NCBI GenBank assembly: GCA_937996755.1
Contig: CALKUS010000135.1
Location: 1-43,340, forward strand
DNA: 43,340 bases
Source: an uncultured Pseudomonadota bacterium
GTDB lineage: Bacteria; Pseudomonadota; Gammaproteobacteria; Xanthomonadales; Ahniellaceae
Direction: 5' to 3'
Position 1 is the first letter of the stretch; each line of letters opens with the position of its first letter. Below the pieces are notes generated by a model that was not told the origin of the DNA, did no database searches, and saw only the letters and a program-made list of their open reading frames with translations. Below, piece by piece: positions 7,001-38,559 of this stretch. Position numbers and translations under genes: made by a program.

Positions 7001-7847
7001 CCGGCTCGGTGCCGCGCAGCACCAGCTGCTCGGCTTCGGTTTCGACGCGCAGCGATTCGAGCCGGCCGTCGACGTAGTCGAACCAGATTTCCGCGCTCGC
7101 CTTGCCCGACATCGGCTGGATGCCGGCGAGCGGCATCTGCGCGAGCCACAGCGCGGGCTCGAGCTCGCGCGCGAGCACGTGGCAGTGCGCGACGCGCGGA
7201 TCGGCGACGCACGCGAAGCGCAGCGGCGGCGATTGCGCATCGATCCATGCGACGCCGCCGAAGCGGCGCGACGCGCCGTCGTTCACCATGCGCAGGTCGA
7301 CGCGCGACAGCGACAGCGACGTGCCGCGCTCCTCGTCGCGCAGCTCGACCTGCGCGGAGCCGAGGCTCACGCCGCCGAGGTCGAACAACGTGTTGTTCGC
7401 ATTCGCGCTCTTCGCACCGCCCGCGAGCCGCGCGATCGTGATCTTGCCGGCGGCATCGCGCACCACGTCGGCCTGCACGCCCACGACGCGGAACTCGCTG
7501 AAGCTCGCGTCCTTGCGCATCCACGAATAGAAGTCGATCACGAGCTCGGCGCGATCGATGTCGAAGCTGCCGCCGCCGGTCGGGTCGACGAGGCTCACGC
7601 CGTCGAGCGTGAAGATCGGCCCGCGCGGCGACCAGCGCCCCTGCAGCGCGCGAAACGTGACGGGTCGCTTGAGCTTTTCGCTCAGGAACGCGCGCACCTT
7701 CTCGGGGTGGCTGACGAGCCACGGCATCGCCACGGCCACGCACGCGAGCACGACCGCCCCGCCGATCACGACGAACGCGATCGCGCCCTGGATCGACAGG
7801 CGCAGCCGCCGCCGGCGGCGTTGCCATTTGGTCAGGTGCTGGTGCAT
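4020..7847 (-). CDS. yhdP: YhdP/AsmA-like inner-membrane protein (DUF3971, C-terminal AsmA-like region); E. coli gene order rng-yhdP-tldD is conserved
   Basis: 1275 aa with an N-terminal TM helix. The C-terminus is homologous to E. coli YhdP (FGEGxxFDxI, GPLDDPQI-like end). It sits between rng and tldD. Confidence 0.85.
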
Positions 7848-7854
7848 CGACAGC

Positions 7855-10255: not shown

Positions 10256-10334
10256 GATCGCAGCGCGACGGACCCCGGAAAAGAAGCGGGGCCCCGAAGG
10301 GCCCCGCGAATACTTCAGTGAAACTCGATTCGGC

Positions 10335-13325
10335 TCATTCGAAGCCGTTCGAGAACAGCGCGTCCGGCAGGCCACCGGCACAGACGAACGTCGTGGCCGA
10401 GACCACCACGTCGTCGATGCGGATGCCGGGGACACCACCGGCGACGACGCTCGAGTCGGTCGCCGCGAGCCAGCGCAGGCGCACGCTCTGGCCGTTCGCC
10501 GCCGCCGGCAGCGTGACCGTCGACGTGATGTACGCCGGCGCCGCCGTCGTGCCGCCGGACAGGCCGGACCAGGCCTGGCGACCGCCGATCGGGCTGCTGA
10601 AGCCGGTCGAGATCGTGTCGGTGTAGCCACCCGCCGTGAACGTGCCACCGGCCGTGACGATGTCGGTGAACGCGCCGGCGCCGATGCTGATCTCCAGCAC
10701 CATGCCGTCGTACGTGTCCTCGTAGTTGAAGAGGTTCTTGAACGTGACGGATGCGCCGCCAGCGGGCACGGTGAAGGCCTCGGAAACGAGCTCGCTCGTC
10801 GACACCGTCCCGACCTCGTTGACGAACGCGGCGTTCGGCGCGGAGGACGGCGTGGTGGCGGACGTGGTCCACAACGCGAGCGGCGTGGCGCCGGTCACGG
10901 CCGAGGTCCAGCCGGCCGGCAGCGCCGGTGCCGTGGCGCCGTCGAAGTTCTGCGAGAGCGCCGTGTTCACCTGCGCAACGCCGATGCGGATCGGCGCATA
11001 GGCGACCGCCGGGAACGCGGTGGGCCCGTCCTGCAGGCCGAGCGTCGGCGTGACGAACTGGCCGCACGTGCCGCCGACCGTGAACGCGAAGTCGCGCGAC
11101 ACCGTCGGGCCGCCGGCGACGACGACACCGTAGGTCTGCGGGGCACCGGGCAGCGTGACGTTGCCGCTCGCGGCGAGCGTGCCGACGAGGGCGGCCGACG
11201 AGTCCGCACCGCCGTTGTTGACGACCGGCAGGCTCAGCGTGACGACCTCACCCGGATCGGGCGCGCCGTTCGGCGGCGTGAAGCTCTCGGACACCAGCGT
11301 CACCGGCGTGCCCGCGGACAGCGTCGGGACGCCCGTGAGGCACCCCGTGAACGTCACGGTGCCGTTGTTCGTCACGGTGAGCGGGCTGCTCGTGATCGAG
11401 CCGAACGTCGGCTTCGAGGCGGTCGCCGTGTACGTACCCGGCGGCAGCTTGAAGTTCGAGTCGAGCGTGCCGTCGGCCTTGGTCGTGCGCAGCAGGCCAC
11501 CCGGCAGTGTGACGACCGCGCCCGCGAGCGGGAGGCCGGAGCTGCAGATGGTGAGGTTCGCGGCGATCTGGCCGCGCTGCGGCGCCGTGCAACCCGGCAG
11601 GATGAACTTGCCGAAGCGCGTGGCCCAACCGGCGCTGCTCGCCGCGGTGTAGTACTCCTGCGTGTACCAGAACGTGCACTCGTCGTTCGGGTCGACGCTC
11701 ATCGAGCTGTAGTCGCCCCAGCGACCGCTGGACGAGCTCTGCGCGCCGCCCGTGGCGACGAACACGGTCTCGCCTTCGTTCATGCCGACGCCCGTTGCTG
11801 CGCCCGTGCGGCCGGTGACGACGATGTTGGCACCGAACGGCGTGGGCTGCGGCGCCTGGCTGTAGCCGAGGCCGAGGTTGCCCTGGCCGTCCTGCGCGAT
11901 CGAGCCCATCCAGTTGTTGATGCCGGCGCCGTTGCCCGGGGCGAGGTTCTGCGTGCCCTGGTCGCGGACCGTCATCGGCGGGTTCGACAGGTCGGTGCTG
12001 CGCAGCTCGAACCAGCGCACGCCCGTCTGGTACGTGGCGGCGCTCGTGGGATTCACACCGGACACGTTGACGGTGAAGTTGCCGACCCACGAATTGATGG
12101 GCGCGGCAGGCGTGCCGAGGTTGCGGTAGCCGACGCGGAACAGCAGGCGGTCGGAAATCGCATCGAGCGCCGTGCCGGCACCCTGCTCGATCAGGTTGCG
12201 ACCGCTCGGCGCACGCGCGTCGAACTCGGCGAGCGGCGTGTCGGCGCGCACGTTGAACGTGGACGACGCGGGCGTCGCGTAGTTCGGCACCAGCTCGTAC
12301 GTGCGGATGCCGTCGATCGGGTCGCCGAAATCGTTGGCGCGGAACTCGAGGATGCGGTTCGGCAGGCCGGTCGGCGGCGGGATCACGCCGTCGATGTCGG
12401 TCGGCAGCTGGCCGCCGGCGTTCGGGTCGATGCCGAACACGTCACGATAGATGTACGACGCGGTCGGGTCGCCGACCAGCATCTTGGCGCGGTCGAACGC
12501 GAAGATGCCCGCGCCGGTGAACGCCGTGCCCGCCTGGTTGAACTGGTTGACGGTGAGGTAGTAGCCGTCGGGCCAGACGCCGTAGTGCGGGTAGTCGAAG
12601 AAGTTGTTGTTCGGCATCACGAACGCGTACGAGTAGTACGCCCCGAGCGGATCGGGCGTGCGCGAGATCGCGATGCACTGGCGGCCGGGCACGCCGTCGA
12701 CTTCGAACTGCGAAATCATCCAGCGGTCGGCCAGCGGGTCGTACAGCACCACCGGGTCGCCGTCGTCGCCCGTGCGGCAGGCATCGCCCGCGGGCAGGCC
12801 CTGGAAGAACTGGGCGCTCTGCAGCACCGGGCCGATCTGGCGGCCGCCGGTCGTCTTGTCGTACACCGAAACGGAGATGTTGACCGTCTGCACGTAGTGG
12901 TTCGGGCCGACGTCGCCGTTCGTGTCGGGCGGCAGGCAGCCGCACAGCGATTCGGCGCCGGTCTGGCCGAGGAACGTGGTGGGCGCACCGATCGTCGACG
13001 GGCCGCGCGCGTTGTTGTTCGCGAGCAGCGGGTCGAGGAATGCACCATCACCCGCGCCCGCACCGGGCTTGCGGTACTTGATGCGCGCGTTCTCGTTCTG
13101 CTCCTTCGCCTGCGACTCGTTTTCCTTGACGATCCGGCGCACCGGCACCTGGTCGCGGATCGGCTGCGTGACGCCGAATGCGGCGGCCTTCGCGGTCATG
13201 AATTCGCCCTGCGCGCTGACCAGCGGCGGGCCGTCCGCAGCGAACGCGGGCGCAGTGACGAGCAGAACGGCCATCGCCGTCGCCAGGCGCGTGCACGCCT
13301 GGAGCTTGTTGAATCGACGCATCAT
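10335..13325 (-). CDS. Large secreted multidomain protein of unknown function. It has a signal peptide, an unrecognised ~550-aa N-terminal domain, Ig-like / carboxypeptidase-regulatory-like beta-sandwich repeats, and a C-terminal jelly-roll-like domain ending DALFSNGFE.
   Basis: Start MMRRFNKLQACTRLATAMAVLLVTAPAFA is preceded by GGGGGA. The long Thr/Gly/Ser-rich beta-strand segments (TICSSGLPLAGAVVTLPGGLLRTTKADGT...) are typical of extracellular proteins. The antisense 1108-aa ORF (10254..13580 +) is a GC artefact. Confidence 0.75.
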   Translation of the reverse strand: MMRRFNKLQACTRLATAMAVLLVTAPAFAADGPPLVSAQGEFMTAKAAAFGVTQPIRDQVPVRRIVKENESQAKEQNENARIKYRKPGAGAGDGAFLDPLLANNNARGPSTIGAPTTFLGQTGAESLCGCLPPDTNGDVGPNHYVQTVNISVSVYDKTTGGRQIGPVLQSAQFFQGLPAGDACRTGDDGDPVVLYDPLADRWMISQFEVDGVPGRQCIAISRTPDPLGAYYSYAFVMPNNNFFDYPHYGVWPDGYYLTVNQFNQAGTAFTGAGIFAFDRAKMLVGDPTASYIYRDVFGIDPNAGGQLPTDIDGVIPPPTGLPNRILEFRANDFGDPIDGIRTYELVPNYATPASSTFNVRADTPLAEFDARAPSGRNLIEQGAGTALDAISDRLLFRVGYRNLGTPAAPINSWVGNFTVNVSGVNPTSAATYQTGVRWFELRSTDLSNPPMTVRDQGTQNLAPGNGAGINNWMGSIAQDGQGNLGLGYSQAPQPTPFGANIVVTGRTGAATGVGMNEGETVFVATGGAQSSSSGRWGDYSSMSVDPNDECTFWYTQEYYTAASSAGWATRFGKFILPGCTAPQRGQIAANLTICSSGLPLAGAVVTLPGGLLRTTKADGTLDSNFKLPPGTYTATASKPTFGSITSSPLTVTNNGTVTFTGCLTGVPTLSAGTPVTLVSESFTPPNGAPDPGEVVTLSLPVVNNGGADSSAALVGTLAASGNVTLPGAPQTYGVVVAGGPTVSRDFAFTVGGTCGQFVTPTLGLQDGPTAFPAVAYAPIRIGVAQVNTALSQNFDGATAPALPAGWTSAVTGATPLALWTTSATTPSSAPNAAFVNEVGTVSTSELVSEAFTVPAGGASVTFKNLFNYEDTYDGMVLEISIGAGAFTDIVTAGGTFTAGGYTDTISTGFSSPIGGRQAWSGLSGGTTAAPAYITSTVTLPAAANGQSVRLRWLAATDSSVVAGGVPGIRIDDVVVSATTFVCAGGLPDALFSNGFE

Positions 13326-19714: not shown

Positions 19715-19785
19715 TGTTTCGGAGCGGGATTCGAACCCGCCACCTCAAGGGTTGCCTTGAGCTCTGACCGACTGAGCTATCCGAT
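19715..19785 (-). pseudogene. tRNA-like remnant X1. It has tRNA D-arm and T-arm sequence, but its anticodon arm is replaced by a 7-bp stem with a 4-nt loop (CTCAAGG-CAAC-CCTTGAG). The acceptor stem pairs at only 5 of 7 positions, and the 5' end abuts the CCA of tRNA-Asp.
   Basis: Reverse complement: GCCATCGGATAGCTCAGTCGGTCAGAGCTCAAGGCAACCCTTGAGGTGGCGGGTTCGAATCCCGCTCCGAAAC. There is no 7-nt anticodon loop and no encoded CCA. Confidence 0.4.
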
Positions 19786-19859
19786 GGCGGCCCCGGCCGG
19801 ACTCGAACCGGCGACTTCCGGTTCGACAAACCGGCGTTCTCACCTCTGAACTACGGGGC
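19784..19859 (-). tRNA. tRNA-Asp (anticodon GTC), CCA encoded
   Basis: Hand-folded: GGCCCCG-TA-GTTC-AGAGGTGA-GAAC-G-CCGGT-TTGTCGA-ACCGG-AAGTC-GCCGG-TTCGAGT-CCGGC-CGGGGCC-G-CCA. The acceptor pairs 7/7, there is a GG in the D-loop, and the discriminator is G73 as expected for Asp. Confidence 0.8.
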
Positions 19860-20290
19860 CCGTGCCTGCACGCTCGACGCCGCGGATCGGTACGCGGTGG
19901 CCCATCGGGCTCCGCGCCAGGCGAACCGGGATCGCTCCCGGAGCTCGCTATCGCTGTTCCGCAGCGTCGCTACGCACATCATGTCGACGCCGCTCGCGCG
20001 AGCTCGCGCGTTGCGTTCGTCGGAATTGGTCGGGCCCATCCCACGCCCGCGCGCGGGAGCGGAAGGCCGGCGTCGCGTCGCGCGCAGGCGCGTCGCTTCG
20101 ATGCGACGTCGTCGACGCCGCAAGGAACACGACGCCACAGGCGCGCGGCATCGACGCCGGGCACTCCACCCGCAGGCGCAACGAGCGCCGTGCCGCATCG
20201 ATCCGTTGCGAGCGATCGACCGCACCGGGATGGAGCCCGGTGGAGCGCGTTGCCGCGCTCCGGTGTTGCAAGGACAGCAGCCGTTTCAGG

Positions 20291-20364
20291 GCTGTGGAGC
20301 GGGAGTTGAACCCGCGACCGTCGAGATATCATCTCGATGCTCTACCCGTCTGAGCTATCCATTG
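20291..20364 (-). pseudogene. tRNA-like remnant X2. It has a canonical cloverleaf body with an Ile-type anticodon GAT, but the acceptor stem is mispaired at positions 2-3, its 5' end overlaps the CCA of tRNA-Arg by 2 nt, and it has no CCA.
   Basis: Reverse complement: CAATGGA-TA-GCTC-AGACGGGTA-GAGC-A-TCGAG-ATGATAT-CTCGA-CGGTC-GCGGG-TTCAACT-CCCGC-TCCACAG-C. It is homologous in position and sequence to X1. Confidence 0.4.
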
Positions 20365-20439
20365 GCTTCCCCGGCAGGATTTGAACCCACGACCTCCGGC
20401 TTCGTAGACCGGTGCTCTACCTGGCTGAGCTACGGGGAA
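20363..20439 (-). tRNA. tRNA-Arg (anticodon ACG), CCA encoded, U1-A72 first pair
   Basis: Hand-folded: TTCCCCG-TA-GCTC-AGCCAGGTA-GAGC-A-CCGGT-CTACGAA-GCCGG-AGGTC-GTGGG-TTCAAAT-CCTGC-CGGGGAA-G-CCA. The acceptor pairs 7/7, and the anticodon arm resembles E. coli Arg-ACG. The T-stem has two wobble pairs. Confidence 0.7.
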
Positions 20440-33207: not shown

Positions 33208-35292
33208 TTGGCAGCGACCGACCCCAACGCCGGACCTGCCGCTGCATTCCGCATCGGCGAGTGGATCTACGACCCGCGCAGCCTGGAGCTCGCGCGCGAC
33301 GGCGCGCGCGAGCGGTTGCCGAAGCGGCTCGGCCTGCTGCTCGAGCGGCTGGCGCGCGAACCGGGCGCCGTCGTGACGCGCGAGACGCTGCTGCGCGACG
33401 TCTGGGGCCGCGTGCACGTCGACGAGGACCTGCTGTCGCGCAACGTCGCGGCGCTGCGCCGGGCGCTCGGCGACGACCCGAAGGACCCGCGCTACGTCGA
33501 GACGATCCCGAAATCCGGCTATCGACTGGTGGCGCCCGTGGCGCCGGAGCGGGCCGGGCCGGTCGTGGCGCCCTTCGCACGACGCGCGCGCCTCCTGCCT
33601 GCCGCGATCGTCGCGACGGTCGTGCTCGCGACGCTGCTCGCGGCCTGGCTGCTCGCGCCGAAGCAGGCGATCGCGCGGTTCGACGCCGACGCGCTCGCGC
33701 GCGCGCAGCCGCTGACGAGCGAGCCGGGCTGGGAGCTCGGGCCTGCGCTGTCGCGCGACGGCCAGCTCGTGGCGTACGCGGAAGCCGTGCGCGATCGCCG
33801 CGGCACACACCTCGTGGTGCGCAGCGTCGATGGATCCGCGGGACGTACGCTCGTCGAGCCCGAAGGCGCCGTCGTCGGCCCCGCGTTCCTGCCCGACGGC
33901 AATTCGCTCGTGTTCCGCGCCGTCGCGTCCGGCAGCTGCGAGCTGCGCGTGCGGCCGCTGTTCGGGCAGTCGCGGCCGCTCGCGGCGTGCGCGCCCGGGG
34001 TGTCGAGCACGGTCGACGTGTCCGCCGACGGCACGCGCGTGGTGTTCACCGCGGCGCCGGCGGCGCGCGATCGCGCGGCCGGTCTCGCGATCGTCGCGAT
34101 CGCCACTGGACGCGTGGCGCCGCTCACGTCGCCCGCGCTCGACGAAGGCGCGGACATCGACGCGCGCTTCGCGCCGGACGGCCGCGTGACGTTCGCGCGC
34201 GGCGACGAAGGCAGCCAGCGGCTGTTCGTCGCCGATCCGGCGAGCGGCAGGGTCGAGCTGCTCTGGCCGGTCGTCTCGCGCATCTCCGGCCATGCCTGGA
34301 CGCCGCGCGGCGACGCGATCGTGGTCGCGAGCGACGACCCCGGCTATCGCGCGCTGCTGTTGCTCGACCCGGCCACGCGCGCGGCGACGCTGCTCGGTGC
34401 CCGCGAAGGCCAGCGTCCGGCGTTCGCGCGCGACGGCAGCCTGGTCTACGAGCTCGCGCGCTTCGACGCGAACGTCTGGGCGTGGCACGCCGCCGACGAC
34501 ACCGTGCGCCAGGTCGCCGGCTCGACGCGCTACGACGGCGTGCCGCGGCTCGCGCCCGACGGCAGGCGCTTCGCGTACGTGTCGACGCGCGCCGACCAGG
34601 AAAGCGTGTGGATCGCGTCGCTCGACGGCGCGCCCGAGCAGCGCGTACCGCTCGATCCGGCGTTGCGCTGGACGCTGCCGGATTTCTCGCCGGACGGCGC
34701 GTTCCTGCTGCTGACGGCCTGGTCGGGCAACAGCACGGCGCTGTACGAGCACGAGCTCGCGAGCGGCCGCACGCGGCGCATCGACGCCGGGCCTGATGCG
34801 TTCGCGGGACAGTACGCGGGCGACGGCGCCACCATCGTGTTCGCGCGGCGCGAAGGCGGCGCATCGAAGAGCCTCTGGCGCGTGACGCGCGACGGCGGCG
34901 CACCCGCGCGGCTCGCGCCGCGCATCGACCGCCACGTGGTCGCGGGCGATCGCGTGCTCTACGGCCAGCGCGGCCGGACCGGCCTGACGTCGCTGCCGCT
35001 CGCCGGCGGCGAGCCGCGCGCCATCGCGGTCGACATCGGCGCGGAGAACCGCCAGGACTGGACGGTCGCCGGCGACACGCTCTGGTTCGCGGCGATCGCA
35101 CCGGACGGTCGCGCCGCGCTGTTCCGCCACGACCTGCGCGACGGAACCACGCGCGAAGCGACGCGCGCCGTCGTCCCCACCACGACGACCGCGACGTTGA
35201 GCGCGACGCCGGACGGCAACCTCGTGCTGTTCGCGCGCGTCGACGAGCTCACCATCGACCTCATGCGCGCCGTCGGAGCCGCACCGCCGCAC
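33208..35292 (+). CDS. CadC-like membrane-bound winged-helix (OmpR/PhoB-type) transcriptional regulator with a periplasmic TolB-like beta-propeller
   Basis: It has an N-terminal trans_reg_C domain (RIGEWIYDPRSLEL...VETIPKSGYRLV), a TM helix (LLPAAIVATVVLATLLAAWLLA), and then a WD40/TolB-like repeat region. It has an apparent TTG start. Confidence 0.75.
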
Positions 35293-35342
35293 TGAGACGC
35301 AAGTGGCTGGCGCGCACTGCGGCGAGCGGGCAACATCGCCGG

Positions 35343-36038
35343 ATGCCCATCGCCGACCGCATCGCCGCGCTGCGCCTGCAGCGCTACCTCATCACGGGCG
35401 CGCTCACGCTGTTGCCGTTGTGGCTCACGTGGGTCGTCTTCAAGTTCGTGTTCACGCTGCTCTCGGACATCTCCGTGCCGTGGATCGCGGCGGTCGCGCA
35501 GCCGCTGGCGCAGGCGTACCCGCTGGCGTTCGGCTGGCTCGATGCGCCATGGGTGCAGTCCGCGATCGCGGCGCTCGCCACGGTGCTGCTGATCTACGTC
35601 GTGGGCTGGGCGACGAACCGCGTCGTGGGCCAGCGCCTGATCGGCGCGTTCGATCGCGTCGTCGCGCGCATCCCGATGGTCCAGACCATCTACGGCGGCA
35701 GCAAGAAGCTGCTCGAGTTGATGCAGACCAAGCCGGACGGAACGCACCGGGTCGTGCTCATCGACTTCCCGCACGCGAACATGAAGACGGTCGGGCTGGT
35801 GACGCGCACGCTTCGCGACCACGACACCGGCCGGGAGTACGCGGCCGTCTACGTGCCGACCACGCCGAACCCGACGTCGGGCTACCTGGAGATCGTGCCG
35901 CTCGATCGCGTCACGCCGACCGACTGGACGATGGACCAGGCGATGGCGTTCATCATCTCCGGCGGCGCGATCGCGCCGTCGCGGTTCCGCTTCGACCCGG
36001 CGCCGGTCGCGCCGGCGGCGCCACAGGACAAGGACTGA
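35343..36038 (+). CDS. DUF502-family membrane protein
   Basis: 231 aa with 2 N-terminal TM helices and the conserved IPxVxTIYGGSKKLLE motif. It sits 5 nt upstream of yhhQ and is likely co-transcribed. Confidence 0.7.
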   Translation: MPIADRIAALRLQRYLITGALTLLPLWLTWVVFKFVFTLLSDISVPWIAAVAQPLAQAYPLAFGWLDAPWVQSAIAALATVLLIYVVGWATNRVVGQRLIGAFDRVVARIPMVQTIYGGSKKLLELMQTKPDGTHRVVLIDFPHANMKTVGLVTRTLRDHDTGREYAAVYVPTTPNPTSGYLEIVPLDRVTPTDWTMDQAMAFIISGGAIAPSRFRFDPAPVAPAAPQDKD

Positions 36039-36043
36039 AGACG

Positions 36044-36808
36044 ATGTTCGACTCCACGCGCGCGCAGCGGCTGTTCGTGGTGCTGGCCGGGTTCTTCGTG
36101 GCCAATGCGCTGATGGCCGAGTTCATCGGCGTGAAGATCTTCTCGCTCGAAGGCACGCTCGGCGTGGCGCCACTCGGCTGGAACCTGTTCGGCACCGCGC
36201 GCGACCTCAACCTCACGGCCGGCGTGCTGCTGTGGCCCGTCGTGTTCGTGATGACCGACATCGTCAACGAATACTTCGGTCGCCGCGGCGTGCGCCTGCT
36301 CTCGTGGCTCACCGTGATGCTGATCGCATGGGCGTTCCTGTTCGCGTATGCCGCGATCGCGCTCACGCCCGCGGCGTTCTGGATCGGCGCCGGCGAGTCG
36401 CAGGGCGTGCCGGACATGCAGGTCGCCTTCGCCGCGATGTTCGGCCAGGGCCAGTGGACGATCGCCGGCTCGATCGCCGCTTTCCTCATCGGCCAGCTCA
36501 TCGACGTCGCGATCTACCACCGCGTGCGCCGCGCGACGGGCGAGCGGATGGTCTGGCTGCGCGCCACGGGCTCGACGCTCGTTTCGCAGCTCGTCGACAG
36601 CTTCGTGGTGCTCTACATCGCGTTCGTGCTCGGCCCGCAACACTGGTCGATGCAGCAGTTCCTCGCCGTCGCGACGGTGAACTACGCGTACAAGTTCTGC
36701 GTCGCGATCGCCGCGACGCCGCTCGTCTACGCGGGCCACGGCGTGATCGACCGTTACCTCGGTCCGGCCGACGCCGCGTCGCTCAAGGCGCGCGCGGCGG
36801 CGGCGTAA
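36044..36808 (+). CDS. yhhQ: Queuosine-precursor transporter YhhQ (DUF165/VUT family)
   Basis: 254 aa from MFDSTRAQRL, polytopic. There is a YhhQ-like PxVFVxTDxVNEYFG motif. It is in frame 0 of the 501-aa track ORF, but only from the ATG at 36044. Confidence 0.8.
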   Translation: MFDSTRAQRLFVVLAGFFVANALMAEFIGVKIFSLEGTLGVAPLGWNLFGTARDLNLTAGVLLWPVVFVMTDIVNEYFGRRGVRLLSWLTVMLIAWAFLFAYAAIALTPAAFWIGAGESQGVPDMQVAFAAMFGQGQWTIAGSIAAFLIGQLIDVAIYHRVRRATGERMVWLRATGSTLVSQLVDSFVVLYIAFVLGPQHWSMQQFLAVATVNYAYKFCVAIAATPLVYAGHGVIDRYLGPADAASLKARAAAA

Positions 36809-36820
36809 GCGTCTTCGCGC

Positions 36821-38479
36821 CTATTCGAATCCGTCGCGCGACAGCGCGTCGTTCCCGAACACGGGCGCCGAGAACACCGGCGACACGCCACCGGCGACGT
36901 ACCAGCGCCCGCGGATGGTGTCGCCGCTGCGCACGCGCGGCGGCGCGAGCTCGACGTTCAACGAGGCCGTGCCGTTCGCGGCGACCACGATCGTCGCGTC
37001 GTACACGTCGCCCGTGGCCGGCGCTGGATCCGTGCCCGGGTCGGCGTGCGCGACGACGAGGCGCGCCGTCGCGCCGGCCGGTGCGTTCGCGAGCGCCACC
37101 GTGAAGTTCTGGCTGCCGAGCAGCGCCGGCTCGAGCGCGACGATCGCGGGCACGCCGTTGCCACCCGCGACGCCGGCACCCGCGACGACCGGCACGCGCG
37201 CGCCTTCGCCGAACAATCGCGGGCGGTCGAACGGCGCGGTTTCCGCCATCGCGCGCGGATCGGTGAGCGGCCGGCGCAGGAAGGCGACGATCGCGGCCTT
37301 CTGCTGCGGCGTGAGGCCGCGCGGGCGCACGCGCGGGTCCTTGTTCGGCGCGTTGAAGTCGCCGCCGCGATCGTAGAAGTCGACGACGTCCGCGAGCGTG
37401 GCGAAGCGGCCGTCGTGCATGTACGGCGCGCGCAGCTCGACGTTGCGCAACGACGGCGTGCGGAACGCGCCGCGATCGGCCGGATTGCTGGTCTGCGCGA
37501 AGCGGCCCAGGTCCTCGGCCGGCGGGCGCACGCCGATGTAGTGGAACTGCTGGTCGCTGAGCAGCGCGCCCGCATGGCACGCGGCGCAGTCGTTCGCAAC
37601 GAACAGCTGGCGGCCCTGCAGTTCCTGCGCCGTGAGCGACGGCGTGCCGCCGTTCTCGGCGTCGAACGGCGTCTGCGTCGGCGCGAGCGTGCGCTCGTAG
37701 GTCGCGATCGCGAGCGCCATGCGCGCGGGCGTGATCGCCGGCGTGCCGAACGCTTCGGCGAACAACGCGGGATAGTCGCGCGTGCCCAGCCATTGCGCGA
37801 GCGCGGGCGGCACGTTCTCGGCGAGCGCGAGCGGCGCCGCGCCCGCGACGCGCGCGGGCAGCGCGGCGACCGTCGCGCCCGAATACGCCATCTCTGCCGA
37901 GTCGAGCATCGGCGCGAGCGACTGGTTCTCGAGCGCGCCGCCCGCCTGCAGGATCACCGACCCGGTCACCGGGTCGGCGAACGTGCCGCCCGCGCGGCCG
38001 TCCCAGAACAGCAGGGGCGCATACGCGGCGCCGACGGCGGAGGGCGACTTGCGCCGGCCCACCTGTGCACCCAGGCCGAAGCTAGCGCTCGCCGCATACA
38101 GGCCATCGGCGCCGTGCGCGGGCACGCCGAGCGAGCCGCGCACGTCGTCGGGCGTGCCGAACACGTTGTCGAAGCCGGGATTGACGCTCGGCGCCAGGAC
38201 GGACGCGCTGCGCGGGTCGCTGCCGCCCGCGGCGCTGCGATGGCACGTGCCGCACGCGACGGTCCCGGTGAGCGAGAGCTGCTCGTCCCAGAACAGCGTC
38301 TGGCCGAGCGCGACCTTCGCGGCGGTGATCGGGTTGCCGGCCGGCACGGGCGGCGGACCCAGCGGTTGCGGCGGCGGCGGCGGGCCACCCTGGGCCTGGG
38401 CGCAGAACGGTGTCAGCAGCGACGCAGCGGCGAGCGCGGCGCGCAGTGGCAGGAAGTGCAGGAATTTCAGGAATCGCAT
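36821..38479 (-). CDS. ccp: Di-haem cytochrome c peroxidase (CCP/MauG family) with a ~130-aa C-terminal extension domain ending DALSRDGFE
   Basis: It has a signal peptide (MRFLKFLHFLPLRAALAAASLLTPFCAQA) and two CxxCH haem motifs (CGTCH, CAACH) plus PxxxRxxxLRNVxxxxPYMHDG. The stop is 12 nt from the yhhQ stop. Confidence 0.85.
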   Translation of the reverse strand: MRFLKFLHFLPLRAALAAASLLTPFCAQAQGGPPPPPQPLGPPPVPAGNPITAAKVALGQTLFWDEQLSLTGTVACGTCHRSAAGGSDPRSASVLAPSVNPGFDNVFGTPDDVRGSLGVPAHGADGLYAASASFGLGAQVGRRKSPSAVGAAYAPLLFWDGRAGGTFADPVTGSVILQAGGALENQSLAPMLDSAEMAYSGATVAALPARVAGAAPLALAENVPPALAQWLGTRDYPALFAEAFGTPAITPARMALAIATYERTLAPTQTPFDAENGGTPSLTAQELQGRQLFVANDCAACHAGALLSDQQFHYIGVRPPAEDLGRFAQTSNPADRGAFRTPSLRNVELRAPYMHDGRFATLADVVDFYDRGGDFNAPNKDPRVRPRGLTPQQKAAIVAFLRRPLTDPRAMAETAPFDRPRLFGEGARVPVVAGAGVAGGNGVPAIVALEPALLGSQNFTVALANAPAGATARLVVAHADPGTDPAPATGDVYDATIVVAANGTASLNVELAPPRVRSGDTIRGRWYVAGGVSPVFSAPVFGNDALSRDGFE

Positions 38480-38559
38480 CTCGGCCCCCGGTCGACGATC
38501 CAACCGGGGGCAAGTTTGCGCGAGATTCTGCAGCGACTATCGACCGCGGGCGAAAATCC

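Follow-up and report, generated by a model that had tools for sequence, protein, structure and literature searches.

Two proteins encoded on contig CALKUS010000135.1 (assembly GCA_937996755.1) from an uncultured bacterium of the gammaproteobacterial family Ahniellaceae share a nine-residue C-terminal tail. They are a di-haem peroxidase and a multidomain protein of 995 amino acids (aa), and exactly these two carry it among the proteins of the 43,340-nucleotide stretch that was analysed, which we refer to in full as the window. The tail recurs at the ends of many mutually unrelated, exported proteins of Lysobacterales and, in a longer form, of Acidobacteriota, and it is a real, widespread and modular C-terminal motif that is undescribed in the domain libraries consulted here. 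Judging from sequence, it is best explained as a putative functional linear motif, lineage-specific and modular, of Sec-exported proteins in Dokdonella-like Lysobacterales. More specifically, we give a probability of about 0.5 to its being a post-Sec sorting or surface-retention tag that is read as a linear peptide.

A nonapeptide shared by two C-termini

The peroxidase ends in ...VFGNDALSRDGFE followed by TAG, with GNDALSRDGFE as its last residues, and the 995-aa protein ends in ...GGLPDALFSNGFE followed by TGA, with LPDALFSNGFE as its last residues. Both open reading frames (ORFs) therefore close as the initial annotation had described, on the nearly identical 9-mers DALSRDGFE and DALFSNGFE. 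An ungapped alignment of the two C-termini shows six identical residues out of nine (DAL...GFE). The tripeptide GFE occurs nine times in the six frames of the window and abuts a stop codon twice, in the two carriers, and no third carrier was found in the window with a relaxed motif. A simulation with 40 random tails of the window's composition returned such a pair with P about 0.003, and BLASTP of the two C-terminal regions alone gave a weak match (E = 0.011).

The catalytic region of the peroxidase (Table 1) also has local NCBIfam matches to MbnH/MauG and matches cytochrome c551 peroxidases in the PDB at 4.5e-33, and is followed by an extra C-terminal stretch of ∼130 residues. No record of exactly this peroxidase product was found. 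The 995-aa protein contains a CarboxypepD_reg-like domain, and its last domain has a local match to NCBIfam NF038111 and 84 homologues; PDB searches with this protein gave no match. Signal peptides are present by eye on both proteins, as had been noted at the outset, and so are the extra C-terminal beta-rich domains, although these are unrelated to one another and lie outside the tag. Two details of the initial annotation need correction. The multidomain protein is 995 aa long from its likely start, MRRFNK..., rather than 997, and the sequence VAGGV is not part of the tail: it sits in the cores of two unrelated domains, in the RWYV..G..SP strand of the beta-sandwich and in the SSV.A.G.RIDD strand of the MAM-like jelly roll.

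A terminator-like hairpin and T run follow the stop of the 995-aa gene, so the gene truly ends there, while a convergent Vut_1/YhhQ-like gene ends at 36808, 12 bp past the end of the peroxidase gene, and leaves no space for a downstream module after the peroxidase tail. Together these two features rule out read-through or frameshifting into a downstream module. An assembly artefact is ruled out by the agreement of four independent metagenome assemblies, all of the same population, on the stop of the 995-aa gene. A coincidence with the T-loop of transfer RNA (tRNA), in which GGTTCGAA likewise encodes GFE (for example at 19727 and 20377), was rejected because the tails GGATTCGAA and GGCTTCGAA sit in long ORFs with a GC content at third codon positions of 0.92. 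As a separate observation on the 995-aa gene, assembly L123 from the same population holds a 1037-aa variant, which suggests an in-frame insertion of ∼42 aa.

Recurrence and placement of the tail

We scanned 185,579 species genomes at the codon level with the pattern GACNNNMTSTTCNNNRACGGCTTCGA, which corresponds to D-x-[LIM]-F-x-[DN]-G-F-[DE] written in high-GC codons and puts no constraint on the sequence 3′ of the motif. At least 119 stretches match, against roughly 5-10 expected by chance according to our own arithmetic. The initial annotation had allowed that no other protein might carry the motif; dozens of carriers were found elsewhere. The counts by taxon and by position given below refer to the matches listed, the majority of which come from Lysobacterales (Dokdonella, Tahibacter, Rudaea, Aquimonas, Rhodanobacteraceae and Ahniellaceae) and Acidobacteriota (Thermoanaerobaculia, Holophagae and Vicinamibacteria). 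The motif is present in complete genomes such as those of Dokdonella sp. MW10 (NZ_CP197094.1) and Tahibacter sp. UC22_41 (NZ_CP170554.1) and in the MAG chromosome OY970073.1.

To assess placement, we counted the residues in frame between the motif and the first stop after it. In 79 of 116 matches a long ORF ends no more than 14 residues past the motif, where uniform placement would give 6.6. By taxon, the motif is near the stop in 49/62 matches from Lysobacterales and 18/22 from metagenome-assembled genomes (MAGs) of unclassified Proteobacteria, at a distance of 0-8 residues in both, and in 11/20 from Acidobacteriota, at 9-14 residues. None of the 18 matches from other taxa is near a stop; these, apparently unrelated proteins of the cytoplasm, act as an internal control. 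The matched loci contain another 15 genes that the DNA pattern missed and whose products have a relaxed version of the tail at their ends. The consensus of the tail is D-x-[I/L]-F-x-[D/N]-G-F-[E/D], followed by 0-8 residues, mostly proline and glycine, and then the stop, and the longer form in Acidobacteriota reads ...GFESGDTSAWSxxxP before the stop.

Ten isolated tails were scanned against Pfam (2025 copy) and NCBIfam release 20.0, neither of which has a model for the tail. These scans hit a choice-of-anchor Q domain upstream of the tail and, weakly, the start of NTTRR-F1, and nothing else. No description of the tail was found in the searchable literature on the motif or on C-terminal sorting in these taxa, and Haft's myxosortase preprint contains nothing on it.

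Carriers, linkers and alternative endings

The carriers belong to many mutually unrelated families, including right-handed beta-helix proteins, trypsin-like and M12B peptidases, FG-GAP and Calx-beta proteins, a heparinase II/III-like enzyme, a pyrroloquinoline quinone (PQQ) sugar dehydrogenase, delta-60 repeat proteins and MAM-like jelly rolls. A crude heuristic finds a signal-peptide-like N-terminus in 53 of the 57 carriers whose 5′ end is complete; of its four misses, at least two resemble signal peptides by eye. Relatives of the last domain of the 995-aa protein, the best match being from a Dokdonella MAG, end in ...DTIFKDGFDPAPL, ...DEIFKDGFDGAAPP, ...DDIFKDDFEGCN and ...DQIFANGFDP, and other relatives of this domain carry IPTL-CTERM-type signals instead (P0049, P0032 and P0045). 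Among paralogues with the MAM-like domain the linker varies in both length and sequence while the motif is constant, which argues for selection on the motif itself.

The peroxidase family provides a second view of the same position. An exhaustive phmmer search with the C-terminal 133 residues of the peroxidase yielded 75 representatives beyond P0002, which were not picked for the motif. The full-length representatives that were examined have the same architecture as the window peroxidase, and after the shared last strand (..SPxFxFTxF) the proteins either stop immediately or continue with the tail, with a type A domain of the type IX secretion system (T9SS; TIGR04183, 23.8-44 bits, a separate domain after the shared beta-sandwich) or with the Solibacter C-terminal domain, Soli_cterm (TIGR03437). 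About 12 of the 75 representatives end in the tail, with such versions as DIVMADAFD, DRLGFDGFE, DNIFAGDFE, LLYSQGFED, TLFDSGFE, RIFGAGFEQ and LVFRGSFEK directly before the stop and three with the FESGDTxxW form, and no partial motif was found among the endings of the family. A homologue with 64% identity, itself a fragment, ends in ...GRDALLRDSFE. Among relatives P0087-P0161, some ends also look, by eye, like FG-GAP/VCBS or CarboxypepD_reg domains.

The domain immediately before the tail in other carriers is of the "choice-of-anchor Q" type (NF041518), a name that we take to reflect an NCBI convention for domains that stand just before alternative C-terminal anchors. The tail fits the broad description of a C-terminal sorting tag: numerous unrelated signal-peptide proteins of a single lineage end in it, and it is interchangeable with known sorting domains.

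Predicted structure of the tail

In the AlphaFold2 (AF2) model of the jelly roll from the 995-aa protein (mafe1c338b695), the predicted local distance difference test (pLDDT) is above 90 for the folded domain, for which Foldseek returned 3m1h, 4gwm and 5l73, representing gingipain cleaved-adhesin, MAM and carbohydrate-binding module (CBM) folds. Block means then drop from 82 to 53 over residues 181-200, which include the linker, and further to 45, with the last four residues below 50. The model of the peroxidase beta-sandwich (m9fd7cfbc3f54) behaves similarly, with pLDDT of 82-97 over residues 10-120 and a fall across the last 13 residues to ∼69 and finally 54. Both models place a short low-confidence turn at DAL[FS], and the tail is not packed on the preceding domain. 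As modelled, the tail appears as an optional, low-confidence appendage that takes the place of recognised sorting domains.

Comparison with known sorting systems

The closest likeness in position is to the type A C-terminal domain (CTD) of T9SS substrates (TIGR04183, Por_Secre_tail). Like the tail, it lies at the extreme C-terminus of Sec-exported multidomain proteins, lacks a transmembrane helix and is modular over unrelated cargo, and in peroxidase homologues it takes the tail's exact position. It is, however, a folded beta-sandwich of ∼70-100 aa that occurs with the T9SS machinery in Bacteroidota and their relatives, whereas the window tail is a low-confidence peptide of ∼9 residues found in Gammaproteobacteria and Acidobacteriota, and neither window protein matches TIGR04183. 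The resemblance to a T9SS CTD suggested initially is therefore one of position and does not extend to size or fold.

The tripartite signals (PEP-CTERM with exosortase, GlyGly-CTERM with rhombosortase, IPTL-CTERM, and LPXTG with sortase) are also short C-terminal motifs on many unrelated exported proteins per genome, and they too come after "choice-of-anchor" domains. They need a hydrophobic membrane helix and a basic cluster, while the tail has neither and ends 0-8 residues past the motif. No tripartite sorting tail was found in the 119 listed loci, and the window proteins have no NCBIfam sorting-domain match, in line with the early view that the tail is not a PEP-CTERM, LPXTG or GlyGly-CTERM signal. 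Soli_cterm is likewise a lineage-specific C-terminal element of many paralogous secreted proteins, and it occupies the same slot in peroxidase homologues, but it is a folded domain of ∼225 aa with no sequence similarity to the tail.

The same sequence motif is found in the first strand of jelly rolls of the CBM_4_9, LamG and MAM types (F-x-[DN]-G-F-E ... W), which begins modules of 170-210 aa in Chloroflexota, Vicinamibacteria and some Lysobacterales proteins. The difference lies in what follows: a stop comes within 0-8 codons in the window and in ∼80% of the listed Lysobacterales matches, and the remaining 130-200 jelly-roll residues are absent in the window and present at internal occurrences, for example in L047, L065, L104 and L107. 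Two further candidates were rejected. A type I secretion signal does not suit carriers with N-terminal signal peptides, and the window proteins match no RTX family; the beta-signal of outer-membrane beta-barrels, which closes the last strand with an aromatic residue, does not suit tails whose last residue is Glu or Asp, or that carry a Pro/Gly extension, after soluble domains.

A sorting or retention tag and its alternatives

In the mechanism that we propose, the tail would be joined by a variable linker to whichever folded domain is last. After Sec export, a dedicated component of the periplasm or outer membrane would bind the exposed acidic-aromatic peptide and direct the folded carrier to the cell surface or the medium. 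The receptor binding, the destination, any cleavage and the machinery are steps that we infer. Support for a tag comes from the recurrence of the motif, its C-terminal placement, its modularity, the low AF2 confidence of the tail, the signal peptides of the carriers and the slot that it shares with known sorting domains. A broader proposal, which we hold only tentatively and consider less probable than the tag itself, is that Dokdonella-like Lysobacterales have an undescribed post-Sec pathway for sorting or surface display whose cargo signal is the tail, with the extended form in Acidobacteriota. Such a pathway may serve tens of proteins per genome, and its machinery may be linked to the modules, found next to many carriers, of a tetratricopeptide repeat (TPR) kinase and an extracytoplasmic function (ECF) sigma factor.

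Several observations weigh against a sorting or retention tag. About 18% of the listed Lysobacterales matches run on through a Pro/Gly-rich linker into further modules (DUF11-like plus jelly-roll, a ∼190-aa "..NYDDL.." module, or RHS repeats). The motif lies between modules in L004, L032, L073, L083 and L119, it comes immediately after the signal peptide in a few matches (L051 and L091), and in Chloroflexota and Vicinamibacteria, extended by SGDxSxW, it forms the first strand of a ∼200-aa jelly-roll module. Internal and post-signal-peptide occurrences are not predicted by a pure C-terminal signal model. The 0-8 trailing residues vary between tails, so recognition cannot rest on a free carboxylate at a fixed distance, and the peroxidase copy lacks the consensus Phe at position -6. 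An all-versus-all BLAST of ∼1,300 ORFs from the 119 listed 8-kb loci found no sorting enzyme or receptor among these neighbours; apart from spurious antisense ORFs, the only recurrent ones were genes for Ser/Thr kinases with TPRs and for ECF sigma factors. Exosortase, rhombosortase and sortase genes were not seen in the 43-kb window or in the 8-kb loci of other genomes. The taxon counts, too, are those of a sample, namely the matches listed. The initial annotation's proposal of a sorting or secretion tag is supported in part: the tail is a recurrent, modular C-terminal element on signal-peptide proteins, its role in sorting, secretion or cleavage stays putative, and no dedicated enzyme was found in the loci searched.

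The occurrences at other positions favour a different role, in which the tail would not signal export but act as a docking or binding peptide: a detached first beta-strand of a CBM4_9- or LamG-like jelly roll, independent of position, that by analogy with dockerin and cohesin might form a non-covalent tether through strand complementation with a partner or through binding to a surface polymer. The identical motif opens the ∼200-aa jelly-roll modules, the Acidobacteriota tail corresponds to approximately the first 21 residues of such a module, and the positions after signal peptides and between modules also fit. In Pfam the module matches no more than the starts of CBM_4_9 and Polysacc_lyase, and these weakly; a profile search with it gave nothing significant, and it has no PDB relative by sequence. 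On the other hand, a partner whose jelly roll is incomplete was not found, AF2 gives a short low-confidence turn and no strand, and a tag that works at any position would not need the strong C-terminal bias seen in Lysobacterales. We regard the docking role as unlikely, though the best placed of the alternatives. The module itself starts with D-x-IF-x-DGFESGDxSxWS, contains RYRARFYFDPN and ends in FDxFESRR (L065:3896-4531, L104, L047, L107 and L064), and in L047, from Chloroflexota, it precedes RHS-type C-terminal toxin regions.

A gene for a Ser/Thr kinase with a Pkinase domain, a transmembrane segment and C-terminal TPRs is found in 22 of the 119 listed loci (among them L003, L016, L023, L037, L046, L048, L055, L062, L092 and L093), lies at most 600 bp from the carrier in at least 10, and is often accompanied by an ECF sigma gene; ECF sigma factors (Sigma70_ECF) occur in 8 loci. 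This adjacency is most simply a regulatory association, and its cause could be regulatory coupling or something more direct. The more direct possibility is that the tail is a regulatory or quality-control ligand, an acidic peptide sensed in the periplasm by the TPR domain of the kinase or by a tail-specific protease, so that ECF-sigma-dependent expression or turnover would follow the load of exported proteins. Acidic peptides at protein C-termini, for instance the EEVD tail of Hsp70 and Hsp90, are known ligands of TPR domains, and by analogy this one might be too. Yet the adjacency is equally explained by modules that regulate neighbouring secreted-protein genes, signalling specific to one kinase is impossible from one common tail, the trailing Pro/Gly residues misfit a carboxylate clamp, and no such kinase stands beside either window carrier. 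The window peroxidase adjoins a CadC-like winged helix-turn-helix-PD40 regulator rather than a kinase, an arrangement that is syntenic in L124. A ligand role of this kind seems to us improbable, more so than docking.

Equally improbable, in our estimate, is that the tail has no role of its own and is a stub, the first strand of a lost C-terminal jelly roll, or a junction of domain-shuffling recombination. Homologous proteins do either stop at the tail (L026 and L117) or run into further modules (L032 and L004), the residues that trail Lysobacterales tails (P, GP, PATP, PPPA and others) resemble the starts of the Pro-rich linkers of the internal cases, and orphan tail-coding fragments lie just after unrelated genes (L025 and L074). 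But a neutral stub would decay, while the 9-mer persists beside a variable linker in different genera and in more than 80 unrelated contexts; the endings of the peroxidase family have either no tail or a complete motif; and stops fall 0-8 codons from the motif far more often than chance would allow. The orphan fragments are in frame right after the stops of their upstream genes. In L025 (near 7770-7850, + strand) the fragment follows a membrane transporter that ends in ..KRFAN and runs, after that stop, as NSDAIFTDGFESGTTGAWSSTSP to the next; in L074 (near 1330-1440, - strand) it is a 36-codon ORF, MAVTPCVPDVAGLACVTAPGAIGGTCVDKIFANGFE up to its stop, after an unrecognised protein. Both fragments may have been left behind by rearrangements at the tail.

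A resemblance of the two C-termini by chance, for which the shortness of the shared unit and the weak pairwise BLASTP match might speak, is contradicted by the in-window simulation and already refuted by dozens of independent carriers elsewhere, and its probability is negligible.

Other features of the window

The peroxidase gene is flanked by the Vut_1/YhhQ-like gene, a DUF502 gene and a gene for a CadC-like winged-helix regulator with a PD40/TolB-type beta-propeller. Elsewhere in the window, tRNA genes form two pairs whose members adjoin directly or share 2 nt. The first pair consists of tRNA-Asp(gtc) and a low-scoring tRNA-like gene (Rfam 42.7 bits), which ARAGORN lists as "tRNA-???" with an anticodon of 2 bases, and the second of tRNA-Ile(gat) (47.8 bits) and tRNA-Arg(acg). 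Tandem tRNA genes with no spacer and one weak member per pair are unusual.

Table 1. Coordinates of the two tail-carrying genes, their parts and other features of the window
Feature	Position	Strand	Remarks
Di-haem peroxidase gene	36821-38479	-	552 aa from likely start 38479 (MRFLKF...); ORF runs 36821-38503
Predicted Sec signal peptide, peroxidase (MRFLKFLHFLPLRAALAAASLLTPFCAQA)	38393-38479	-	From translation, by eye; heuristic
Di-haem cytochrome c peroxidase/MauG-like catalytic region	37241-38320	-	Pfam CCP_MauG and Cytochrom_C
Extra C-terminal beta-sandwich domain, peroxidase	36863-37195	-	Last folded domain before tail; no Pfam match
Tail 9-mer DALSRDGFE, peroxidase	36824-36850	-	Degenerate copy; Ser replaces consensus Phe at position -6
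TAG stop, peroxidase	36821-36823	-	Abuts GFE
Peroxidase flanking genes	33208-35295 and 35303-36808	+	Same neighbourhood kept around 64%-identical homologue (L124)
995-aa protein gene	10335-13322	-	Likely start MRRFNK...; 995 aa also called in assemblies
Predicted Sec signal peptide, 995-aa protein (MRRFNKLQACTRLATAMAVLLVTAPAFA)	13239-13322	-	By eye
First ∼600 residues, 995-aa protein	10950-13322	-	No Pfam, NCBIfam or PDB match
MAM/gingipain cleaved-adhesin/CBM-like jelly roll, 995-aa protein	10395-10949	-	Last folded domain before tail
Linker from jelly roll to tail, 995-aa protein (ATTFVCAGGLP)	10365-10394	-	
Tail 9-mer DALFSNGFE, 995-aa protein	10338-10364	-	Full consensus copy; fits scanned DNA pattern
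TGA stop, 995-aa protein	10335-10337	-	Abuts GFE
GC-rich hairpin and T run, terminator-like	10277-10308	-	Read from sequence; just past stop of 995-aa gene
Two pairs of tRNA genes	19716-19860 and 20289-20439	-	

Implications

To our knowledge, the selection of folded proteins for export or surface display is poorly understood in diderm bacteria that lack a T9SS, and we know of no linear signal for the substrates of type II secretion. The hosts of the carriers are a group of wastewater and soil bacteria, and the tail is easy to recognise and marks dozens of their proteases, adhesin-like beta-helix proteins, lyases and redox enzymes. The family that joins a MauG/cytochrome c peroxidase-like catalytic part to a beta-sandwich, with at least five alternative endings, is a useful natural series for the study of C-terminal sorting elements. 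If the tail is a true sorting or anchoring signal, the exported or surface proteome of these bacteria would become definable from sequence alone, the peptide would provide a handle for finding the machinery by peptide pull-down and phylogenetic profiling, and it would offer a minimal tag for engineering display or secretion. Even if it is merely a docking peptide, it would be an unusually small and widely shared module.

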